A DNA stretch of 36,494 nucleotides, from positions 1 through 36,494 of the forward strand of contig CAZNDW010000003.1 in the NCBI GenBank assembly GCA_964571895.1, written 5' to 3'. Shown here one piece after another: positions 1,221-36,494 of this stretch. A model generated the notes under the pieces. It searched no databases and was not told where the DNA came from. It saw only the letters and a list, made by a program, of their open reading frames with translations. Source of the stretch: an uncultured Planctomycetales bacterium. Its GTDB lineage: Bacteria; Omnitrophota; Gorgyraeia; Zapsychrales; JAHFFX01. The translations under genes and the position numbers were made by a program. Each line of letters starts with the position of its first letter. Within the stretch, counting starts at the first letter, position 1.

Positions 1221-2497
1221 TTTTAACGATTAAGAAGACGGATTCCTTAAAAGGGGAATTATCCGTACCTTCTTCGAAGTCCTATTCTATCCGGGCGTTT
1301 ATTGTGGCCTCTCGGGGGGGACATTCGACCATTGTGAATCCTTCCGATGGGGATGATGTCCGTGTGGCGATCGGCGTGGCAAAGGCCCTGGGGGTGCGGA
1401 TCAAGCGAAAGACCCCCCGCCTCTATCAGGTCGATGCCTTGAGGAATCCTTTGCGGATCAGAAAGATCAATGTCGGGGAATCCGGTACCGTTTTGCGCTT
1501 TCTTCTGCCGCTCATCTCTTTGTACGAAGGCAAGTCTTTGATCGTTGGGGAGGGGACCCTTCAAAGAAGGCCCAATCGTTATCTGATCCAAACCTTAAGG
1601 AACATGGGAGTTTCTATTAAGGGAAAGGGAGCCGAAGAAAGGGTGCCGATCCAAAAGCTGGAGGGGCGTCTGCGGGGCGGCTGTGTGGAGATCGATGGTT
1701 CTCTCAGCTCCCAGTTTATTTCTGCCTTTTTAATTGCCTGTCCGTCTCTTCCCAAAGATACGCTTCTTAAGGTGACCGGGAAGACCGTGGTCTCGGAACC
1801 GTATATCACGATGACTCAGCAGATCTTAAAAAAGGCCGGAGTCATCATAATCCCCAAAAACCGTTTTGGTTTTTATATTAAAGGAAACCAAAAATATCAG
1901 GGATTAAAGAATTTTATCGTCCCGGCCGATTATGGGCTGGCAGCGTTCTTTCTGGCGGCGGGGACGCTTGTGAAATCAAGGTTGGTCTTGAGGGGTTCTT
2001 TCAACGATGATCTTATTCAAGCGGATGGGCGTATCCTTGGATTCTTGCGCCGCATGGGCGTTAAGTTCGCCCAAACAAAACAGGGGATCACGATTATGGG
2101 ATCATTTCATCTCTGCGGAGGGAATTTTTCTCTGAAGGATTGTCCGGACCTTGTGCCCATTATGGCCATTCTGGCGCTCTTTGCCAAGGGGCCGACGCGG
2201 CTCTCGGATATTGGGCATGTGCGGATGAAGGAATCCGATCGCATGGGGGACCTCACTCAGGAACTTATCAAGATAGGGGCAAAAGTCATCCCGAAACCCG
2301 ACAGCCTGGTGATCCATCCCCAGCCCAATTATAAGGAAGGATGCCTTTTAGATCCTCATCGGGATCACCGCCTGGCCATGTCGTTTTGTGTCTTAGGCTT
2401 AAAAGTGGGTGTGAGGGTTAAAGATATAGAATGTATCCGCAAATCTTATCCACGTTTTGTCCGGGATCTTAGAGGGCTGGGCGCTAGCTTACGCTAA
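1217..2497 (+). CDS. aroA: 3-phosphoshikimate 1-carboxyvinyltransferase (EPSP synthase)
   Basis: 426 aa. Motifs: LKGELSVPSSKSYSIRA, GESGTVLRFLLP, RMKESDRMGDL, DHRLAMSFCVLGL. ATGA overlap with the upstream gene. Confidence 0.9.
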   Translation: MILTIKKTDSLKGELSVPSSKSYSIRAFIVASRGGHSTIVNPSDGDDVRVAIGVAKALGVRIKRKTPRLYQVDALRNPLRIRKINVGESGTVLRFLLPLISLYEGKSLIVGEGTLQRRPNRYLIQTLRNMGVSIKGKGAEERVPIQKLEGRLRGGCVEIDGSLSSQFISAFLIACPSLPKDTLLKVTGKTVVSEPYITMTQQILKKAGVIIIPKNRFGFYIKGNQKYQGLKNFIVPADYGLAAFFLAAGTLVKSRLVLRGSFNDDLIQADGRILGFLRRMGVKFAQTKQGITIMGSFHLCGGNFSLKDCPDLVPIMAILALFAKGPTRLSDIGHVRMKESDRMGDLTQELIKIGAKVIPKPDSLVIHPQPNYKEGCLLDPHRDHRLAMSFCVLGLKVGVRVKDIECIRKSYPRFVRDLRGLGASLR

Positions 2498-7782: not shown

Positions 7783-7926
7783 ATTTATTCTCCTTCGCCC
7801 CCCACCGTTTTGTTTCGCTTTGTCCCCTGAAATCGCTTCGCGATTTCAGGGGATTTAATCCCGGAAAGGCCTTGCCTTTCACGGGACGAAAGCAAAACGA
7901 AACAGTGGGGGCAAAGGATAATAAAT
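7783..7926. repeat. Nested palindromic element of about 144 bp (MITE/REP-like)
   Basis: Imperfect outer arms of about 44 bp (7783-7826 / 7883-7926) enclose two hairpins. One is a perfect 13-bp stem, CCCCTGAAATCGC-TTC-GCGATTTCAGGGG (7824-7852). The other is CCCGGAAAGGC / GCCTTTCACGGG (7860-7885). The termini resemble those of the 14021-14163 element. Confidence 0.8.
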
Positions 7927-11688: not shown

Positions 11689-13395
11689 ATGAGTGAAACC
11701 TTAAAAGACCATATCATCAAAGCCTTGATCGAGCTGCGGCATCTGAAAAAAGAAGATATCGATGAGGCCTTGGCTTTACAGAAACAAAAAGGACTTCCTC
11801 TGGAGAAGGCCTTCATTGAGAAGGGCCTGATCACGGAGAAGGACTTGTTGATTTTGCTCATTAAAGAACTCAGAATCCCATCGATCAATTTGACGAAATA
11901 TAAAATTGATCCCGGCCTCAAAGCCGTCATTCCCGAACGGCTCGCCCGACAATACCACATTATCCCGATTTCCCAGCTGGGGGATACAATCACAATCGCC
12001 TTATCGAATCCTTGGAATATCTTTGCCATCGATGATTTGAGAAATATCACCGGTAAAGATATCGATGCCATCATGAGCACAGATTCCGAGATCATGAAGG
12101 CGATCGACCATTACTATGGGAGAAAGGCCACCAGCACGGTTGCGGAAATCAGCAAGGATATCTCTGTCGAGGGTTTGGAAATTATCTCCGAGCAAGAACA
12201 GGAAACGCTCGATACCACGGTCGATGCCAGTGAACAGGCCCCGATTATTCGCATGGTGGATTTGGTCATCACCGAGGCCATCAAGCAGAGGGCCTCGGAT
12301 ATCCATCTTGAGCCCACAGCAGAAAATATGCGCGTGCGCTACCGGATCGACGGAGTTTTGCAGGATATCCTGAATATTCCTAAAGAAAATCAGAATGCAA
12401 TTATTGTCCGGATCAAGATCATGTCGCGGCTGGATATCACCGCCTCCCGCATCCCTCAGGACGGGCGGTTCAAATTGCGTCTCGAGGAGAAAGAAATCGA
12501 TTTTCGGGTTTCCCTTTTGCCTACAACCTACGGCCAAAAGATCGTCATGCGGGTTTTGGACAAAAAGAATCTGGGGATCGGTTTGGATGGCTTGGGTTTT
12601 TCGAAAGAGGCCGTAGCGCAACTCCAAGAGGCGAGCACGAAACCTTTTGGGATGATCCTCGTCACGGGACCGACCGGCAGCGGAAAATCCACGACCCTTT
12701 ATTCGATCGTCAATCGGTTGAATACCGTTGATAAGAATATTATCACGGTCGAGGACCCGGTAGAGTACTTGATGGAAGGATTCACCCAGATTCAAGTCCG
12801 TCCCGAGATCGGGCTCAGTTTTGCCGCTGGATTGAGGTCCATTCTCCGCCAGAGCCCGGACATCGTGATGGTTGGAGAGATCCGGGACTCTGAAACCGCC
12901 GACATCGCCATCAAAGCCGCCTTGACTGGCCAGTTGGTTTTCTCGACCCTCCACACCAACGATGCCGCCGGCGCCCTCACCCGCTTGGTGGACATGGGGG
13001 TTGAGTCCTTTTTGGTTGCCTCCAGCCTCGTGACCGTCACGGCCCAGCGTCTGTGCCGGCAGATCTGTTCGCATTGCAAGGAACCGGTCGATATCCCATC
13101 CCCGGTCATTAAGGATTTGGGAATCAAAGTGCTGGCGGGGACAAAGTTTTATAAAGGAAAGGGGTGTGAGACGTGCCGAAAGACCGGATACCTGGGACGG
13201 CTCGGGATAACAGAAATCTTAAATGTGGATGACACGATCCGTGAGATGCTCCTTAAGGGTGATTCCTCCGACGAGATCAAGCGGTACGCTTGCCAGCACA
13301 ATCATATGACCACTTTAAGAGAAGATATCTTTCAGAAATTTACCTCGGGACTGACCACTCTGGAGGAAGTCCTCCGGATCACCACGGGTGATTAG
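11689..13395 (+). CDS. PilB/GspE-family ATPase (paralog 2, His-box variant)
   Basis: 568 aa with the same architecture as paralog 1. Motifs: GPTGSGKST, VEDPVEY, DIVMVGEIRD, CSHC...CETC. The His box reads TGQLVFSTLHT (first His replaced by Gln). Confidence 0.9.
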   Translation: MSETLKDHIIKALIELRHLKKEDIDEALALQKQKGLPLEKAFIEKGLITEKDLLILLIKELRIPSINLTKYKIDPGLKAVIPERLARQYHIIPISQLGDTITIALSNPWNIFAIDDLRNITGKDIDAIMSTDSEIMKAIDHYYGRKATSTVAEISKDISVEGLEIISEQEQETLDTTVDASEQAPIIRMVDLVITEAIKQRASDIHLEPTAENMRVRYRIDGVLQDILNIPKENQNAIIVRIKIMSRLDITASRIPQDGRFKLRLEEKEIDFRVSLLPTTYGQKIVMRVLDKKNLGIGLDGLGFSKEAVAQLQEASTKPFGMILVTGPTGSGKSTTLYSIVNRLNTVDKNIITVEDPVEYLMEGFTQIQVRPEIGLSFAAGLRSILRQSPDIVMVGEIRDSETADIAIKAALTGQLVFSTLHTNDAAGALTRLVDMGVESFLVASSLVTVTAQRLCRQICSHCKEPVDIPSPVIKDLGIKVLAGTKFYKGKGCETCRKTGYLGRLGITEILNVDDTIREMLLKGDSSDEIKRYACQHNHMTTLREDIFQKFTSGLTTLEEVLRITTGD

Positions 13396-13403
13396 GAAGC
13401 TGT

Positions 13404-13448
13404 CCCCCTCCCTAGCCATCCCCCATTTGGGGGGAGGGGAGGTGGGGG
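13404..13448. repeat. C-run / G-run imperfect hairpin
   Basis: CCCCCTCCCTAGCCATCCCCC-ATTT-GGGGGGAGGGGAGGTGGGGG, starting 9 nt after the paralog-2 stop codon. Confidence 0.7.
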
Positions 13449-13538: not shown

Positions 13539-14000
13539 ATGGGCTCAGCAGAGAAACCCAATATCCCAAGACCATTGATTGGGGAGATTCTGATCAAAAG
13601 GAATATGATCACCCCCAAGCAATTGGCGGAAGCCTTGGAGATTCAAAAGAAACAGGATGGCTTTATCGGAGAGATTTTGGTCAACCTCGGATACCTTGAG
13701 GAGAGGGACATCGTGGTTGCCTTGGTTGTCCAGTGCGGCCTTCCCTACATCGCCGTCAACAAATACGATATCGATCCTGGTGTCCTCAAACTCATCCCCA
13801 CGGAGGTCGCCCGGAATCTGCATGTGATTCCCTTGGATCGCGTGGGGGATGTGCTCAGTGTGGTCATGATCAATCCCTTGAATGAACCGTTAAAAGAACA
13901 ACTGAAGCAAATCACGGGCTGTCGCATCGCCCCCTTCATTGCCACAAAAACAGAGATCGATGAGACGATCGCTCGATTTTATCCCATCACGGCGGGATGA
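13539..14000 (+). CDS. Second standalone T2SSE_N / MshEN-like domain protein
   Basis: 153 aa. LIGEILIKRNMITPKQLAEALEIQ is followed by FIGEILVNLGYLEERDIVVAL and LHVIPLDR. A GGAGAG ribosome-binding site precedes the ATG. Confidence 0.8.
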   Translation: MGSAEKPNIPRPLIGEILIKRNMITPKQLAEALEIQKKQDGFIGEILVNLGYLEERDIVVALVVQCGLPYIAVNKYDIDPGVLKLIPTEVARNLHVIPLDRVGDVLSVVMINPLNEPLKEQLKQITGCRIAPFIATKTEIDETIARFYPITAG

Positions 14001-14020
14001 GCTTTCCAATCATAGGATCG

Positions 14021-14163
14021 CTTATTCTCCTACGCCCCCACTGCTTTCTTGCGAAAGCAAGAAGCGGGGGCTTCGGAGCAATTATTCTGCATGGAGAATT
14101 CCTGCCTGTCGGCAGACAGGATTGCTGCGAAGCCCCACCTTTAGCGGGGCGTAGCAGAATAAG
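14021..14163. repeat. Nested palindromic element of about 143 bp, same family as 7783-7926
   Basis: The 18-bp outer stem CTTATTCTCCTACGCCCC (14021-14038) / GGGGCGTAGCAGAATAAG (14146-14163) has one mismatch. Inner hairpins: CCCCCACTGCTTTCTTGC-GAAA-GCAAGAAGCGGGGG, GGGGCTTCGGAGCAAT / ATTGCTGCGAAGCCCC and CCTGTC-GGCA-GACAGG. Confidence 0.8.
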
Positions 14164-14179
14164 ACAAGGACGACGGGAT

Positions 14180-15388
14180 ATGATCATCTTTAAATACGTG
14201 GCCAAAGATCCTAATGCCAAAACTGTCACCGGCAAGATGGCCGCTGAGAATCAGATGACTGTGCTCGAGGAGCTCAGAAAGCGCAAGCTCATTGTGATTT
14301 CTATTTCTGAGATTAAAGGAATAACTCTCTTCAAGCCAGGGACAGGCAAGAAGAAGGTTAAACCCGATGACGTTGTGATCTTTGCCAGACAATTGAGCAC
14401 CATGGTGGAGGCCGGGATCCCCATCCTGCAGGCCTTGGATGCCTTGCAGGAGCAGATGACCAGTTCTCATTTTCAGAGTGTCATTGCCTCTATGCGAGAT
14501 GACATTCAGATGGGAAGCAGCCTTTCGGCGGCCTTTGCCAAACACCCAAGGGTCTTTGGAGCGTTTTTTATCAACATGGTGAAGGTCGGGGAAACGGGCG
14601 GAATTTTAAGCGCGATCCTGGATCGGGTTTCAACCTATATGGAAAAGATCCTGAAATTGCGGCGGAAGGTCCAATCTGCCATGGTGTATCCGATGGTTGT
14701 GATTTCCATGGCCGGTATTATTACGGTGGTTCTGCTGGTGAAGGTTGTCCCGACTTTTGCGACCATCTATCAATCTTTTAATAAAGATCTGCCGGCTATG
14801 ACGCAGTTTCTCATAAATATCAGCACGGTTTTGAAACAACAGCTCCTTTGGTATATCGCGGCAATTGTTATCCTCATTTTTATCATGTCCCGTTGGTATT
14901 GCACCCCCAAAGGGGCCTTGACCATTGATCGGATGAAATTGAGGATGCCCATTTTTGGTGAGCTGATTCGAAAAGTCGCCATCAGCCGTTTTTGCCGGAC
15001 TTTGGGCACCTTGATTCAAAGCGGAGTCCCCATCTTAGAATCGTTGGATATCGTCGGCAAGACCTCGGGAAATAAAGTGATCGAGGTCGTCACCGAGAAT
15101 ATTAAAAACAATGTCCGCGAAGGGGAAAGCATCGCCGTGCCGCTGGTTCGAAGCGGGGTTTTCCCTCCTATGGTTACCCGTATGATTGCGATCGGAGAGA
15201 AATCGGGACAGATGGAGAAGATGTTGACAAAGATCGCGGAATTTTATGATGATCAGGTGGACGCGGCTGTGGCCGGCTTGACCAGTATCATTGAACCGGT
15301 CATCATTGGATTTTTGGGGATTGTGGTGGGATTTATTGTGATCGCGTTATTTTTACCGATTCTGAGCATCACTCAGCTTCTCAAATAA
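14180..15388 (+). CDS. pilC: Type IV pilus platform protein PilC (GspF family)
   Basis: About 402 aa starting at MIIFKYVAKDPNAKTVTGKM, a typical PilC N-terminus. It has two GspF repeats and three TM segments. The ORF is also open from ATG 13997, which forms an ATGA overlap with the upstream stop. Those 61 extra codons are mostly the palindromic element. Confidence 0.85.
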   Translation: MIIFKYVAKDPNAKTVTGKMAAENQMTVLEELRKRKLIVISISEIKGITLFKPGTGKKKVKPDDVVIFARQLSTMVEAGIPILQALDALQEQMTSSHFQSVIASMRDDIQMGSSLSAAFAKHPRVFGAFFINMVKVGETGGILSAILDRVSTYMEKILKLRRKVQSAMVYPMVVISMAGIITVVLLVKVVPTFATIYQSFNKDLPAMTQFLINISTVLKQQLLWYIAAIVILIFIMSRWYCTPKGALTIDRMKLRMPIFGELIRKVAISRFCRTLGTLIQSGVPILESLDIVGKTSGNKVIEVVTENIKNNVREGESIAVPLVRSGVFPPMVTRMIAIGEKSGQMEKMLTKIAEFYDDQVDAAVAGLTSIIEPVIIGFLGIVVGFIVIALFLPILSITQLLK

Positions 15389-16400: not shown

Positions 16401-16510
16401 GATCATGATAAAGGTAAACCATTCGTAAGAATGGGGCACAAAGCTAGAGGGTTCTGCTTTGCCCCGATTGAAAACGTCGGGACTTTGCAGGACAGCCAGT
16501 TACCATGATG
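16401..16510 (+). promoter_or_regulatory. c-di-GMP-I (GEMM) riboswitch-like aptamer
   Basis: GGUAAACCAUUCGUAAGAAUGGGGCACAAAGC (16413-16444) matches the remembered V. cholerae Vc2 core at 27 of 32 positions. It has a GNRA-capped hairpin and a second hairpin, GUUCUGC / GCAGGAC. The closing segment is AGCCAGUUACC. P1 is AUCAU / AUGAU. Confidence 0.7.
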
Positions 16511-16776: not shown

Positions 16777-17181
16777 ATGATGAAGAGAATAAGAAAGAAC
16801 CATCGGGGATTCACCTTGGTCGAGATTATGATCGTTGTGGCGATCATTGCGCTCTTGGCCGCGATTGCGATCCCGAACCTGCTGAGGGCGAAGATATCGG
16901 CCAACGATGCCTCTGCACGGGCGACCTTAAGAGCGTTGTCCACCGCATCCGAAACCTTCGCGACCTCCAACAACGGCAATTATCCTGCGACCATGACCGA
17001 TCTGACGGGCGCGACACCACCGTACATCAACACCGACTACTGTGGCGCGACCGTATCGGGGTATGCGTTCACCTGCACAAACGCGGCGGGAAGCTATACG
17101 TATGTCGCCACGCCGGTGACGGTCGGGACCTCAGGAACCACAACGTACACCATCACGACCGGAGGTGTTTTGACACCATAG
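16777..17181 (+). CDS. pilA: Type IV major pilin
   Basis: 134 aa. The canonical prepilin signal is KNHRG/FTLVEIMIVVAIIALLAAIAIPNLL. The C-terminal half is small and T/G/A-rich. The start is ATG 16777 or 16780. Confidence 0.9.
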   Translation: MMKRIRKNHRGFTLVEIMIVVAIIALLAAIAIPNLLRAKISANDASARATLRALSTASETFATSNNGNYPATMTDLTGATPPYINTDYCGATVSGYAFTCTNAAGSYTYVATPVTVGTSGTTTYTITTGGVLTP

Positions 17182-25343: not shown

Positions 25344-26390
25344 ATGATCTTTGTTGATGAGGCCAGGATTTTTCTTAAAGCGGGTTCCGGCGGGAAAGGC
25401 TGTGAGAGCTTCTACTCCGATAAATTCAGCCGGCACCCCCGGCCCGATGGCGGGGACGGCGGAGGCGGTGGAGATGTCGTCTTTGTTGCGGACAAAGGGA
25501 TCCAGACCTTACTCGATTACCGTTTTAAACAGCATTATCAAGCCCCCAAAGGCGGCAACGCAAGCAGCAAAGGGAAAAAAGGGAAAGTCGGCGAGGATTT
25601 GGTTCTGAGGGTTCCGGTCGGCACCCTGATCAAAGACGAGAAGACGGGATTATCGATTAAGGATTTGGTTTCCGACCAACAGTCGGTGATCGTTGCCAAA
25701 GGCGGCCAGGGGGGCCATGGCAATGCCCACCGCAGGACCGCCCCCCCTGCTTTGCTTCGCAAAGCAAAACGGGGGGGCCAGCCCTGTCCCATGCTGGGAC
25801 AGGGCTGGCCCGGCGAAGAACGGTGCATTCGTCTTCAGTTAAAGCTGATCGCGGATGTGGGGCTCGTGGGCTTTCCCAATGCCGGGAAATCCACCTTAAT
25901 TTCCAGCATCTCTAAAGTCAAATCCAAGATTGCCAGCTATCCTTTTACCACCAAAAGCCCGATTTTAGGAATCGTTGCCGCCAACTCCGAGCAAAATGAG
26001 GGGTCGGGGAATTTTGTGGTGGCGGATTTGCCGGGCTTGATCGAGGGCGCCCACCGGGGACGAGGACTGGGGGACCGCTTTTTGAAACACGCCGAGCGCA
26101 CGAAGATTTTGGTGCACGTTGTGGACATGGCCGGAACCGAAGGACGGGATCCTGGGGAGGATTTTGAAAAGATCAATCTTGAGCTCAAAGAGTACAGTGA
26201 AGATCTCTTTTTTAAACACACTATCGTTGCGGCCAACAAAATGGATTTGCCGGGGGCCTCGGCCAACCTGCGTCGGTTTGAGAGTCGATATCAAGAGGAA
26301 AAGATCTTTCCGGTGTCGGCTTTGAAACGGAAGGGCTTGGACGAGCTCGTCGCATTTATCCGAAAGCTGTTGTCGACCCTCGTCCCTTAA
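25344..26390 (+). CDS. obg: GTPase Obg/CgtA
   Basis: 348 aa. It has a glycine-rich Obg fold (GGDGGGGGDV, GGQGGHGN). G motifs: GFPNAGKST, DLPGLIEGA, NKMD. A palindromic repeat is translated in the linker. Confidence 0.9.
   Translation: MIFVDEARIFLKAGSGGKGCESFYSDKFSRHPRPDGGDGGGGGDVVFVADKGIQTLLDYRFKQHYQAPKGGNASSKGKKGKVGEDLVLRVPVGTLIKDEKTGLSIKDLVSDQQSVIVAKGGQGGHGNAHRRTAPPALLRKAKRGGQPCPMLGQGWPGEERCIRLQLKLIADVGLVGFPNAGKSTLISSISKVKSKIASYPFTTKSPILGIVAANSEQNEGSGNFVVADLPGLIEGAHRGRGLGDRFLKHAERTKILVHVVDMAGTEGRDPGEDFEKINLELKEYSEDLFFKHTIVAANKMDLPGASANLRRFESRYQEEKIFPVSALKRKGLDELVAFIRKLLSTLVP
25740..25808. repeat. Two adjacent palindromes translated in frame inside obg
   Basis: GCCCCCCCTGCTTTGCTTCGCAAAGCAAAACGGGGGGGC (25740-25778) and a perfect 14-bp stem, CCAGCCCTGTCCCA-TGC-TGGGACAGGGCTGG (25778-25808). 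Together they encode APPALLRKAKRGGQPCPMLGQGW. Confidence 0.8.
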
Positions 26391-33716: not shown

Positions 33717-34307
33717 ATGATCTACTGGATTGGGTATTTTTTCTGGAAACTGGCCAGTTGGATTTTTTTCCCCCTCACCATTCGAGGGTCCCAGGGACTT
33801 CCTCCAGCAGGCGGTTTTATTCTGGCCAGCAATCATGCGAGCTTTCTGGATCCGATGATTATTGGGATATGCTTTTGGCGGCAGCTGCGGTATGTGGCAA
33901 GGGATTGTCTTTTTAAAAACAGGGTCTTTGATTTTGTCCTTCATCAAGTCGGGGCCTTCCCGATTAAGAGGGAGTCCGCCGACATCGCCGGGATCAAAGA
34001 GATTCTGAAAAAACTCCAAAAAGGATACCCGGTTGTGATTTTCCCCGAGGGCACGAGGATTCAAGAACGCAAAGAGATTCACGGCGGGGTGGGCCTGGTT
34101 GCGGTTAAAAGCGGTCTGCCGGTTGTGCCGGTTTTTATCCGGGGTTCCGACAAGGTCCTCGGCCCGGGAGCCAAGTTCCCCCGGCGCCACCCGGTGACCG
34201 TTTCCTTCGGCAGCCCTAAGACTTATTCCAAAATAACATCCTACCAAGACATCGCCCGCCAGATTATGCAGGATATCAATTCGCTACGGCTGGATTTTTC
34301 CCCATAA
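33717..34307 (+). CDS. plsC: 1-acyl-sn-glycerol-3-phosphate acyltransferase
   Basis: 196 aa with the HX4D motif (NHASFLD), FPEGTR and an N-terminal hydrophobic segment. Confidence 0.85.
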   Translation: MIYWIGYFFWKLASWIFFPLTIRGSQGLPPAGGFILASNHASFLDPMIIGICFWRQLRYVARDCLFKNRVFDFVLHQVGAFPIKRESADIAGIKEILKKLQKGYPVVIFPEGTRIQERKEIHGGVGLVAVKSGLPVVPVFIRGSDKVLGPGAKFPRRHPVTVSFGSPKTYSKITSYQDIARQIMQDINSLRLDFSP

Positions 34308-35475
34308 CTTTCAGCACTTCCTGGGCCGCGCGGCGGCTCGCGTGCGGCTCGCCCAAGGTTTCCTTGACTTTCTTTAACTGGGCTCGGATGTTTTTCATTT
34401 TGAACTCGTCTTTGTACAGCGACTTGGCTTCGGAAGCGATCTTTCCGGAGGTGGCCTGAAACTGAACACACTCGGGAACGATCTTCTTTTGGGCGACCAC
34501 GTTGACCAGCCCGATATAAGGGATGCGGATCAGAAGCCTGGCCAAGATCCAAGTGAGAAGAGAGGTTTTATAGACGATGACCATGGGCTTCTGTAGAATG
34601 GCGGCCTCCAGGGTGGCGGTGCCCGAGGCCACCAAACACAGCGTCGCGGCGTTGAGGGCGTTATAGCGCTCTTCGGTTATGATCTTTAAAGGAAAGGGGA
34701 CATTCGTCGCATACCGTTCGATGGTCCGCATCTCGACGGTGGGCGCCTTAATCAGAACAAACTGCAGCCTGCGGTTGTCTTGATAAAGCAAAGAGGCGGC
34801 CTTGAGCATGACTGGAAGAAGCCTCTCGATTTCTCTTTGCCGGGATCCCGGAAGAAGGGCCACAACCGGCCTGCCCGCCATCTTCACGACCTGGCAGGCG
34901 GGCTTCTCGGGAGAAAGACCAATGGACGATAAAAAATCTTCCGGCGGCCGGGTCACTTGAATCTCATCCAAAAGGGGATGGCCCACGAACGTAACATCGA
35001 GGTCCCGGCGACCGTAAAATTCTTTCTCAAAAGGCAGGATCACCAGCATTTTGTCAACGAAATTTTTGATGACTCTGACCCGATTTTCTTTCCAGGCCCA
35101 GACCTGCGGGCTGATGTAGTAAATCACTTTGGTCGGCAGGCCGCGCCTTTTGATTTCCCTGGCCAGACGCAGATTAAAGCCGGGATAGTCGATCAGGACG
35201 ACCCCCGCGGCCCGGGTTTCCTCGATTTTATTTAAGATCATATCAAACATTCGTTGAAACTTCCCCAAGTGTCGGATGACCTCCGCAAATCCCACGACTG
35301 CGAGATCGACGAGATTCTCATACAGAGGAACGCCGCTTTTTTGCATGAGCTCCCCGCCTAAGCCGGAGAACGTGATGGCGCCATCGAGCCGCTTGATCTC
35401 ATCGACCAAAAAGGAGGCGTGGAGATCCCCCGAGGCCTCGCCGGCGACGATGATCAGATGCTCGGATTTTTCCAT
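34276..35475 (-). CDS. lpxB: Lipid-A-disaccharide synthase
   Basis: 399 aa. Motifs: IIVAGEASGDLHAS, YISPQVWAWK, SGTATLEAA. Confidence 0.9.
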   Translation of the reverse strand: MEKSEHLIIVAGEASGDLHASFLVDEIKRLDGAITFSGLGGELMQKSGVPLYENLVDLAVVGFAEVIRHLGKFQRMFDMILNKIEETRAAGVVLIDYPGFNLRLAREIKRRGLPTKVIYYISPQVWAWKENRVRVIKNFVDKMLVILPFEKEFYGRRDLDVTFVGHPLLDEIQVTRPPEDFLSSIGLSPEKPACQVVKMAGRPVVALLPGSRQREIERLLPVMLKAASLLYQDNRRLQFVLIKAPTVEMRTIERYATNVPFPLKIITEERYNALNAATLCLVASGTATLEAAILQKPMVIVYKTSLLTWILARLLIRIPYIGLVNVVAQKKIVPECVQFQATSGKIASEAKSLYKDEFKMKNIRAQLKKVKETLGEPHASRRAAQEVLKVMGKNPAVAN

Positions 35476-36452
35476 AGGGTCTGGGTGATCTTTAAGGCCA
35501 CCTCAAGGGCCATTCGCCCTTCCACTCCCGAGACCAGGGGCTGGGTGTCCTGGAGGATACAGTCGAGGAAAGATTCGAGCTCTTTCTTGAGGGGTTCTTC
35601 TTTTTCGATGGGAAGGCTGGTTTTGGAAATGGAGGCGCCGTTTTTTTTATAGAGGAAGGCCTCCTGCTTGACGTAATCCAGCGAGATATAGGTGTCTTTG
35701 AGGAAAATGCGGATCTTGCGCATCACTTCATCCGACACCCGGCTCGCCGTCAGGTTGCAGACGCAGCCGTTCTGGAAGGTGAGCCGCGCATTGGCGATAT
35801 CTTCCAAGTCCGTCAAGACGTTAACCCCGACGGCCTGGATGTCTTGGATAGGGGAATCCACCAATCCCAGAACGATGTCGATGTCGTGGATCATGAGGTC
35901 GGTCACCACGTTTAAGTCCAGAGAGCGGTTGGGAAAATGATTCAGGCGGTGGCATTCCACAAACAAGGGATTGAGGGCCCGCCCCCGCTGCTTCGCTTTG
36001 CGAAGCAAAGCGACGGGGGCCAGAGAGCGGATCGCTTGGAAAGCCGCATTGAAGCGCTCCACATGCCCCACCTGGAGCTTGAGATTTTTCTTTTGCGCGA
36101 GCCCGATTAAGATGTCGGCTTCTTTCAGGGTCAAGGTGATGGGCTTTTCGATGAAGGTGTGGACGCCCTGCTTAAGAAAAAATCGGGCGATCTCGAAGTG
36201 GGAAGAAGTCGGCGTGCAGATATTGACCGCTTCAATCTCACTGGTTAGCTGACGATAATCTTCCAGGACCTTGATGCGGTAAGGTTGGGAGGCTTTCTCA
36301 GCGGCCGCTCGATTGATGTCGCAGACGGTCACCACCTGGGCTTTGGCGGCCAACTGGCCGCAGTAAACCTTCAGGTGCTTGGAGCCCAGATGGCCGACAC
36401 CCACGATGGCGAGGTTGACTCTTCGAGGGCGCTTAGGGCTGATTTTGCGCAT
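35454..36452 (-). CDS. Gfo/Idh/MocA-family NAD-dependent oxidoreductase
   Basis: It has a Rossmann motif (NLAIVGVGHLGSKH) and EKP (FIEKPITL). The ATG at 36452 is taken as the start. The ORF stays open to a TTG at 36479. It overlaps the lpxB start by 22 nt. Confidence 0.8.
   Translation of the reverse strand: MRKISPKRPRRVNLAIVGVGHLGSKHLKVYCGQLAAKAQVVTVCDINRAAAEKASQPYRIKVLEDYRQLTSEIEAVNICTPTSSHFEIARFFLKQGVHTFIEKPITLTLKEADILIGLAQKKNLKLQVGHVERFNAAFQAIRSLAPVALLRKAKQRGRALNPLFVECHRLNHFPNRSLDLNVVTDLMIHDIDIVLGLVDSPIQDIQAVGVNVLTDLEDIANARLTFQNGCVCNLTASRVSDEVMRKIRIFLKDTYISLDYVKQEAFLYKKNGASISKTSLPIEKEEPLKKELESFLDCILQDTQPLVSGVEGRMALEVALKITQTLWKNPSI
35979..36020. repeat. GC-clamped palindrome translated in frame inside the oxidoreductase gene
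   Basis: On the coding (-) strand it reads GCCCCCGTCGCTTTGCTTCGCAAAGCGAAGCAGCGGGGGC. It shares a 17-nt core, GCTTTGCTTCGCAAAGC, with the obg copy. It encodes APVALLRKAKQRG. Confidence 0.8.
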
Positions 36453-36494
36453 GAGGAATGGTAACAAATCCCTCGACAAAAGTCAACGGATATG

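Follow-up and report, generated by a model that had tools for sequence, protein, structure and literature searches.

The DNA analysed here, a stretch of 36,494 nt (contig CAZNDW010000003.1, hereafter the window) from an uncultured bacterium of the Omnitrophota, carries near its end a gene of the Gfo/Idh/MocA family that contains a short GC-rich hairpin repeat in frame. The gene (35454–36452, minus strand) encodes a GnnA-like UDP-GlcNAc 3-dehydrogenase of 332 residues (P0001) and is located directly upstream of lpxB (34276–35475, minus strand). The open reading frame (ORF) to which it belongs (35454–36479, minus strand) matched both the N-terminal and the C-terminal GFO_IDH_MocA domains of Pfam. 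The repeat copy, called c3, occupies 35981–36020 on the minus strand and forms a 40-nt GC-clamped imperfect palindrome, GCCCCCG-TC-GCTTTGCTTCGCAAAGCGAAGC-AG-CGGGGGC. Read from 36020 to 35981, the minus strand is GCCCCCGTCGCTTTGCTTCGCAAAGCGAAGCAGCGGGGGC, which is translated as APVALLRKAKQRG within the enzyme; the translated ORF includes SLAPVALLRKAKQRGRALNPLF and, in a longer excerpt, FQAIRSLAPVALLRKAKQRGRALNPLFVE. A preliminary description of this DNA had placed a palindrome in frame in the oxidoreductase next to lpxB and had read the peptide ALLRKAK from it, and the sequence, the translation and the Pfam domains all agreed with this. As single-stranded DNA, c3 folded with −19.6 kcal/mol (z −4.2) and as RNA with −34 kcal/mol, and it matched the covariance model R1 with 65.4 bits (E 1e-13).

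Compared with its orthologs, the gnnA-like gene has a net in-frame gain of 42 nt (35979–36020), the very span that had been noted before, encoding PVALLRKAKQRGRA as residues 146–159. All 28 of the closest proteins (62–75% identical; those with source names were from Omnitrophota) lacked exactly 14 residues at this position in alignment A1, the lineage-specific indel that the preliminary description had proposed to look for. No ortholog carried the peptide, so the case named there as contradicting an insertion, the same peptide without the palindromic DNA, was not encountered. When codons were aligned with those of the ortholog in L122, from the same hot-spring assembly, the 42 nt fell between ...CTG GCC and CTC AAT CCC..., with a junction whose placement is ambiguous across a GGCCC direct repeat. 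When an anchored gapped pattern for the empty gnnA site was run against JGI metagenomes, no match was obtained. The solved structure nearest to the host protein was GnnA (7BVJ; phmmer E 1e-56, 36% identity), with a 12-residue gap at the insert and a Foldseek template modelling (TM) score of 0.83–0.91. With GnnA as its closest fold and a lipid A gene cluster as its setting, the protein is predicted to be a GnnA-type enzyme. The AlphaFold model had a mean predicted local distance difference test (pLDDT) value of 85, and residues 146–158 were its sole segment below 50, located between helix 136–144 and strand 164–172, the first strand of the C-terminal domain; the insert thus maps between the Rossmann and the C-terminal domains. 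One ENA assembly and two JGI assemblies contained the gene including the insert, with 1–11 other positions differing, and since these assemblies are of different origin the insert is not an assembly artefact.

A second copy, c2, lies in obg (25344–26390, plus strand), which encodes the GTPase ObgE (348 residues; Pfam GTP1_OBG and MMR_HSR1). This copy (25740–25778, plus strand) reads GCCCCCCCT-GCTTTGCTTCGCAAAGCAAAAC-GGGGGGGC, encodes (APP)ALLRKAKRGG and matched R1 with 49.4 bits; in the obg ORF, GCCCCCCCTGCTTTGCTTCGCAAAGCAAAACGGGGGGGC at 25740–25778 encodes APPALLRKAKRGG, and the near-identical in-frame obg copy giving ALLRKAK was therefore present as described. The same peptide is found in both coding copies because the two are oriented alike with respect to the coding strand. 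That the palindrome would encode similar peptides in either orientation was borne out in part: when the orientation is reversed and the frame kept, the product is ASLCEAK, which is identical to ALLRKAK at four of seven residues. The obg insert of 18 residues had no counterpart in 29 orthologs (alignment A2) and is positioned where the Obg-fold domain ends, immediately ahead of the conserved PGEE...LELK segment. Alignment by codons with the ortholog L123 showed that the newly added part of c2 is 25749–25778 (30 nt, core and G-run), which follows the native GCC CCC CCT, and that the 5′ C-run of c2 coincides with native Ala-Pro-Pro codons.

Next to c2 is a second obg hairpin, unrelated to it (CCAGCCCTGTCCCA-TGC-TGGGACAGGGCTGG, 25778–25808, plus strand), which adds 27 nt (25785–25811, CPMLGQGWP) right after the native CAG CCC. 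Jointly, the two obg hairpins folded as single-stranded DNA with −37.7 kcal/mol (z −8.7). The second hairpin was rejected as a repeat family of its own: GCCCTGTCCC-N3-7-GGGACAGGGC had at least 120 metagenome matches, but their loops and flanks were unrelated, and some adjoined A/T runs as terminators do. It is a common stem and not a demonstrated family. Lineage-specific inserts of 24–35 residues were also seen in the Obg proteins of other Omnitrophota (P0129, P0132, P0136 and P0147) after GIVE.ED.FD (A2 columns ~220–275); an Obg insert in L247 (587–1684), the sole one checked at the DNA level, consists of nested palindromic DNA with a single-stranded DNA fold of −36.5 kcal/mol.

Sister-strain contigs from two groundwater runs (X7 and X2), with flanks of ~96% identical DNA, had an obg gene of native length, a net difference of 54 nt. 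The empty site of X7 reads ...AGG ACT CCC ACC GAT CCC CAG CCC GGC GAA... (RTPTDPQPGEE), and the obg of X2 encodes NHNRTPTEARPGEE. The obg site shows a presence/absence polymorphism among close strains, and absence of the insert from strains this similar makes the obg insertions recent. At the gnnA site the same strains had 15 nt fewer, with all differences within 35980–36016, and the sequence rebuilt from the difference table was approximately GCC CGG TCC CGT TCT GGG ACA GGG CAG. By comparison with their orthologs, the insertions in the gnnA-like gene and in obg were both lineage-specific.

The insertions of 42, 30 and 27 nt and the 27 nt rebuilt for the sister strains are all multiples of three and free of stop codons, so the inserts are most likely translated. 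A stable hairpin within a coding sequence could instead be cut out of the mRNA or skipped by ribosomes, as happens with the hop of T4 gene 60 or the mitochondrial 'byp' elements, and the c3 and c2 hairpins are very stable. We consider this very improbable: every coding insertion that could be measured against an ortholog or a sister strain keeps a stop-free frame, which is expected from selection on a translated insert and needless if the insert is skipped, and neither a pair of take-off and landing codons nor splice-like boundaries were seen.

The window copies belong to a much larger set. An exact scan with GCTTYGCTTYGCRAAGCRAARC over one genome per species (596 Gb) returned the core at no fewer than 118 loci from 86 assemblies, where by our own calculation ~2 would be expected by chance. 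Among the matches listed, to which all counts of copies given below also refer, 48 loci (~40%) were from Omnitrophota, 37 (~30%) from Planctomycetota including Phycisphaerae and Scalindua, six from NPL-UPA2, five from Elusimicrobia, four from Thermodesulfovibrionia or Nitrospirales and two from Desantisbacteria; other labels were singletons, several of them clampless and probably chance matches. The window itself had two occurrences of the 22-nt core at three or fewer mismatches, compared with none in each of 100 dinucleotide shuffles. Only three matches were found in 2.9 million viral contigs, and phages were therefore dismissed as a vector. The core sequence and five of its peptides were absent from the searchable part of the literature, and the listed papers matching palindromic repeats in Omnitrophota seemed, by title and abstract, unrelated.

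The copy number was also visible in reads. Depth over 35981–36020 was 50–250 times that of the flanks in hot-spring and groundwater runs, and the sequences adjoining it at either border were unrelated to each other: depth reached 1100–2400 compared to ~10 in the source hot-spring run and 260–730 in the groundwater runs. The pile-ups set the repeat boundaries at 35981/2 and 36019/20, and the unit length of the repeat is 38–42 nt. A second depth peak (35868–35909, ~130–290 compared to ~10) covers the highly conserved coding segment DLMIHDIDI and is most likely caused not by a repeat but by orthologs of the many Omnitrophota in these samples being cross-mapped. Genome-specific subfamilies with their own clamps and flanks were found in L082 and L073 (four copies in all), in L040 (two copies) and in groups G1–G3, and in several subfamilies of 85–170 nt the hairpin is embedded between other hairpins, each genome tending to amplify its own variant. 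Numerous genomes thus carry the motif in many copies, at loci unrelated to each other. In group G3 (L006, L017, L028 and L009, labelled Omnitrophota, Desantisbacteria and NPL-UPA2), near-identical 60-nt flanks surround the core; one flank has the perfect hairpin GTATAGGAAAGTAT-AAA-ATACTTTCCTATAC, the opposite one CAAGAAAATCG...CGATTTTCTTG. Either a composite element was transferred horizontally or the sharing stems from mis-binning.

The 22-nt core, GCTTT-GCTTCGC-AAA-GCGAAGC, is enclosed by a clamp of a C-run and a G-run of 4–7 bp. It consists of a perfect 7-bp hairpin and one extra pentamer, and can therefore be folded so that a 5-nt bulge lies in one arm or the other; in a few copies (L034 and L089) each arm has three pentamers. 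As single-stranded DNA the core forms a triloop and a 4–5-nt bulge at −18 to −20 kcal/mol, with z between about −4 and −5. Several conserved features were not imposed by the search pattern: CCCC at −7 to −4 and GGGG at +25 to +28 were present in at least 90% of the copies, C occupied −1 and AG occupied +22/+23. The irregularities of the stem are conserved as well, namely the mismatch between C(−1) and A(+22), a T·G pair and the 5-nt bulge, and 87 of 119 copies had the asymmetric form at the degenerate positions. Pairing of the clamp is kept through compensatory changes. Mutual information was 0.6–0.8 at −3/+24, −4/+25 and −8/+29 and absent in slid registers, and at −3/+24, where it was 0.82, G-C, A-T and C-G alternate; over 65 copies, 92.5% of the cells were paired compared to 40–56% in slid registers, with 84 double changes compared to 29 in shuffles. 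At the hairpin tip, one strand of the core has GCGAAGC and the intergenic copy c1 has GCGAAAGC. GCGNAGC and GCGNNAGC are extraordinarily stable mini-hairpin DNA motifs (PMC13037366), a likeness in the tip motif which suggests that the single-stranded DNA form of the repeat may be unusually stable; the mini-hairpin is a physico-chemical motif and, unlike the repeat, no genetic element (PMC13037366). Openness of the repeat in all six reading frames was considered as an adaptation and dropped: 19% of shuffles and 68–78% of palindromic shuffles were also open, which is not unusual for the composition, and so no claim of design is made.

Most copies are intergenic; others lie in frame in genes, in structural RNA or inside other hairpins. 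Copies were rarer in long open frames than expected (38% were spanned by 150 or more open codons, compared to 82% of random positions), and those in genes are a minority: ~10 have been validated, and crude ORF calling put their share at no more than 27%. In other organisms, of other phyla as well, the in-frame host genes encode a MenD-like thiamine pyrophosphate enzyme, QueA, phosphoenolpyruvate carboxylase, NadE, HisC-like and NifS-like aminotransferases and a radical-SAM/DUF2344 protein with two in-frame copies. The coding copies use both orientations and five of the six combinations of orientation and frame, giving ALLRKAK, RFASQSEA, LRFAKQS, LCFAKRS and ASLCEAK. With a C-run at the 5′ end and a G-run at the 3′ end on either strand, every frame begins with Pro/Ala and ends with Gly/Arg, which plausibly helps the insert to act as a loop.

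The range of peptides bears on whether ALLRKAK is an ancestral or convergent protein motif, or the insert an artefact of assembly or sequencing. The shared peptide, taken alone, speaks for such an explanation. It is absent from GnnA and from all 28 and 29 orthologs, the same DNA is read in other ways in other proteins and recurs at unrelated loci, the insert is present in all three assemblies, and the gene flanks are collinear and in frame on both sides; this explanation was discarded as scarcely conceivable. The earlier preference for repeat insertion over protein convergence was thus upheld.

Copies were also found in and beside structural RNAs. In the RNase P RNA of a Planctomycetia metagenome-assembled genome (MAG; L049, 2367–2708; RF00010, 221 bits), helix P3 bears the long-form core as a 14-nt loop insertion, and helix P12 (2508–2548) is a short form of the repeat, CCCCCACUGCUUCGCAAAGCGAAGCAGUGGGGG. 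A copy in L010 (1681–1726) starts precisely where the CCA end encoded by a tRNA-Ala gene (1720–1795, minus strand) lies, and its clamp is CCACCG/CGGTGG and not CCCCCG/CGGGGG; this contig holds another copy (L021, core 2674–2695), with CCACCG in one arm and CGGGGG in the other, leaving a mismatch. Nesting is seen in copy L119:5113–5178, located 5 kb beyond the window and bearing a second hairpin of 20 nt in the loop of its core, in the window copy c4 (7795–7915), and in c1, which lies within a nest of palindromes.

A functional cis-element could in principle account for the multiplicity of the hairpin, acting as a stabiliser or processing site of mRNA, as a translational pause at domain boundaries or as a site for nucleoid or topology proteins. 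Binding of such proteins has been proposed for the REP sequences (repetitive extragenic palindromes) of E. coli. The RNA fold of the core (−30 to −34 kcal/mol), the compensatory changes in the clamp, the ultra-stable tip motifs and the location of both coding copies of the window, where an N-terminal domain ends or close to that point, are in line with a function. We nevertheless consider it unlikely. The obg copy is missing from the sister strains and from all orthologs, and copies occur in unrelated genes, frames and RNAs. Intergenic copies showed no bias in position or orientation (48 in tandem, 9 convergent and 8 divergent intergenic regions) and were no nearer to stops than to starts, and the orientation of copies was balanced (57 compared to 55). 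An intrinsic terminator was rejected on similar grounds: no T-run follows the hairpin, the consensus from +30 to +41 is not T-rich and no bias toward 3′ ends was seen. Among known RNA families, Rfam gave a cyclic di-GMP-I riboswitch elsewhere as its sole match in the whole window, and a permissive scan of 35900–36100 gave only microRNA-precursor (mir) models at 12–19 bits, compared to gathering scores of 74–100.

In its behaviour the repeat is closest to the Rickettsia palindromic elements (RPEs), described by Ogata et al. (2000, 2002; summarised in PMC10969869) and comprising ten families of ~100–150 bp, confined to Rickettsia. Both are dispersed palindromes that occur in frame in unrelated housekeeping genes, with a peptide tolerated by the fold and absent from orthologs, and both have copies in intergenic DNA and RNA genes and no transposase within the element. 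The repeat differs from RPEs in its size of 38–42 bp, in its occurrence in Omnitrophota, Planctomycetota, Elusimicrobia, NPL-UPA2, Desantisbacteria and Thermodesulfovibrionia, and in having only a minority of its copies in genes; its length and its hosts set it apart from the RPE families.

In form the repeat is closest to REP/REPIN and BIME sequences, and it is a member of neither these nor the RPEs. Like REPs, it is a short (~20–40 nt), imperfect, GC-rich and multi-copy hairpin with conserved mismatches, mostly extragenic, clustered or nested and free of target-site duplications. A GTAG-like 5′ head as in REPs was not seen, there being no conserved bases outside the clamp in the position-frequency table, and no RAYT gene was found beside copies in the limited DNA sampled (8-kb stretches around the copies). 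As a rule a REP family is confined to one species, and the core of the repeat is instead common to several phyla; to our knowledge, in-frame coding copies are not usual for REPs. [quoted passage not shown] They too are non-autonomous and multi-copy with terminal inverted repeats and occasional in-frame fusions with host ORFs, but they generate target-site duplications of fixed length through a DDE transposase, whereas the repeat is a single 40-nt hairpin, and direct repeats at the hairpin borders of 116 copies did not exceed those at control offsets. The attC sites of integrons and the end hairpins of IS200/IS605 resemble the repeat in that unpaired or extrahelical bases are conserved and the stem varies with compensation. 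The likeness is in form only, since the sequence of the repeat resembles neither R/L boxes nor IS608-type ends, and no integrase or TnpA is linked to it.

Taken together, the repeat is palindromic DNA of the REP/MITE kind, dispersed and non-autonomous, that is tolerated in coding DNA, and c3 is probably an in-frame copy of this mobile hairpin repeat, a judgement that leaves aside how it moved. The gnnA copy is an ordinary consequence of a repeat family that itself seems undescribed. In this Omnitrophota lineage a copy would have been inserted into the gnnA-like gene where the Rossmann domain gives way to the C-terminal domain, and could survive there because the net gain was 42 nt and the element is free of stops in every frame. 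It would then form a 14-residue, poorly ordered surface loop, with Pro/Ala from the C-run, ALLRKAK from the core and Arg/Gly from the G-run, and a second copy would have done likewise in obg more recently. The element itself would be neutral or slightly deleterious selfish DNA. For the movement, our preferred mechanism, with somewhat less than half of the weight, is that the single-stranded DNA hairpin is mobilised in trans by an unlinked structure-specific recombinase, by analogy with the HUH/Y1 enzymes that act on REPs and on IS200/IS605 ends or with IntI on attC. The conserved mismatch and bulge, the lack of target duplications and the defined subfamilies favour it.

The same repeat family could also spread with no dedicated enzyme, by template switching or microhomology-mediated repair. 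A nascent strand with a C-run or GCCC at its end would pair with the clamp of another copy, copy the core and return, and the arms would be kept complementary by quasipalindrome correction. RNase P helix P3, other repeats and tRNA 3′ ends would then be preferred sites because they already offer a clamp. Much of the junction evidence suits this model. The Ala-Pro-Pro codons that serve as the 5′ clamp in obg, GCC CCN CCT, are also present in the ortholog L123, and the outer stem of the second obg hairpin uses the native CAGCCC, its inverse GGGCTG lying within the added 27 nt. The clamp of the copy beside tRNA-Ala takes in the CCA end of the tRNA, and helix P3 of RNase P already forms a C-run/G-run hairpin in the Rfam consensus, with the core in its loop in L049. 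Hairpins within hairpin loops, the lack of target duplications and of a linked transposase in the sampled neighbourhoods, and the two different hairpins that appear at the same gnnA position are likewise in keeping with it. Against it, subfamilies share identical clamps and flanks of 20–60 nt, as if a defined unit had been copied, and repeated palindrome correction would erase the C/A mismatch and the T·G asymmetry, yet these are kept in ~75% of the copies; moreover, an empty site is known for just two or three independent junctions. We regard this model as a serious but less favoured rival.

Several points weigh against a mobile repeat moved by a recombinase, or against its reach. When ORFs of at least 90 codons from 8-kb stretches around 118 listed loci were clustered, no protein family was recurrent beside copies and no enzyme able to move the element was found; the largest cluster spanned eight loci, and a linked transposase was set aside, as the clusters inspected, by eye and with no domain search, looked like generic families such as response regulators, ABC transporters and aminotransferases. 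The four coding hairpins of this lineage all read GCCC...GGGC, two further nucleotides and GCCC, a pattern that is not general in the family, and together with the obg clamp on native proline codons it fits microhomology or templated insertion at least as well as a recombinase. The sister strains appear, from the rebuilt sequence, to carry a different GC-rich hairpin in frame at the same gnnA position, and a different hairpin shorter by 15 nt is not predicted by a simple story of a single insertion. No RNA run contained the gene, and translation of the insert is put forward as likely only. The invariance of the core among the matches was mostly imposed by the exact-match pattern and is no measure of how diverged the family is, and the spread across phyla could in part be mis-binning, as the labels of MAGs are fallible. 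A dispersed hairpin repeat remains our favoured reading of c3. A wider proposal can be put forward only tentatively, and we think it rather unlikely as a whole: that the repeat represents an undescribed, ultra-small (~40 nt) class of mobile element that crosses phyla, moved as single-stranded DNA by an unlinked recombinase that reads the conserved bulge and mismatch, or by enzyme-free, clamp-guided template switching ('hairpin contagion'), in either case with no target duplication, and that it enters coding DNA, RNase P helices P3 and P12 and hairpin loops and seeds Pro-X7-Gly loops in proteins of Omnitrophota and Planctomycetota.

Two further copies in the window are intergenic variants. Copy c1 (14034–14071, plus strand) is a diverged variant, GCCCCCACT-GCTTTCTTGC-GAAA-GCAAGAAGC-GGGGGC, which matched R1 with 20 bits (E 0.018) and folded as single-stranded DNA with −14 kcal/mol (z −4.1). 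The preliminary description had read this copy, upstream of pilC, as HCFLAKARSGG. It does give this peptide in the long ORF 13997–15388. The Pfam T2SSF domains of PilC start at residue 129 of this ORF, and pilC of the syntenic relative L123 encodes 402 residues; the real start of pilC is therefore likely Met62 (~14180), so the diverged copy lies upstream of it and is intergenic. In the spacer between the stop of an ORF with an MshEN domain (14000) and the start of pilC, a nest of palindromes surrounds c1 (~14020–14166, 146 nt). Its outer arms, CTTATTCT(C/G)CTACGCCCC and their inverse, enclose c1, a GCTTCGGAGCAAT/ATTGCTGCGAAGC hairpin and CCTGCCTGTCGGCAGACAGG, and CCTGCCTGTCGGCAGACAGG recurs, inverted, within the loop of copy L119:5113–5178. 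Copy c4 (7795–7915, plus strand; R1 36.8 bits, E 1e-6) is a nested variant with the clamp seen in other copies (GCCCCCCACC...AGTGGGGGC), three-pentamer arms (GTTTTGTTTCGCTTTG / CGAAAGCAAAACGAAAC) and two further hairpins in its loop; its left flank is common to c1, and the inverted repeat I4 pairs 7900–7924 with 14022–14046. The surrounding pilus genes hold some other features. A different C-run/G-run hairpin, CCCCCTCCCTAGCCATCCCCCATTTGGGGGGAGGGGAGGTGGGGG, is located at 13404–13448, 9 nt past the stop of a pilB-like gene (11689–13395), and the MshEN ORF (13539–14000, plus strand) is a stand-alone ORF of 153 residues with this domain only, placed between the pilB-like ATPase, which has an MshEN domain of its own, and pilC. 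The riboswitch found by Rfam is a cyclic di-GMP-I aptamer (16403–16507, plus strand; RF01051, 54.6 bits, the gathering score being 35), which precedes ORF 16777–17181 by ~270 nt; the ORF was judged by synteny to encode a type IV pilin, as L123 has an N_methyl protein of 131 residues at the same place.

Protein-coding palindromes have so far been a hallmark of Rickettsia, and the repeat extends them, by a much smaller unit, to free-living and episymbiotic candidate phyla. The 40-nt unit, the core common to several phyla, the insertion into proteins, RNase P RNA and hairpins and the lack of a recognisable mobilising gene seem to be the unusual features of the family. With a core common to several phyla, one has to ask by what means it is moved and how it passes from lineage to lineage, and the conserved asymmetry and the extremely stable GCGAAGC tip make the hairpin a plausible substrate for a structure-specific DNA enzyme. 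For genomics, the repeats add spurious-looking loops to MAG proteins and lengthen helices of RNase P RNA, and they can mislead homology-based annotation and indel-based phylogenetic markers. Logan short-read contigs of the source organism (runs X1–X7) end at or inside the repeat at 35981–36020; the family therefore fragments assemblies of these genomes. The polymorphism among strains of ~96% identity and the two hairpins apparently present at one codon position of the gnnA-like gene suggest an active process that could be tracked in metagenome time series.

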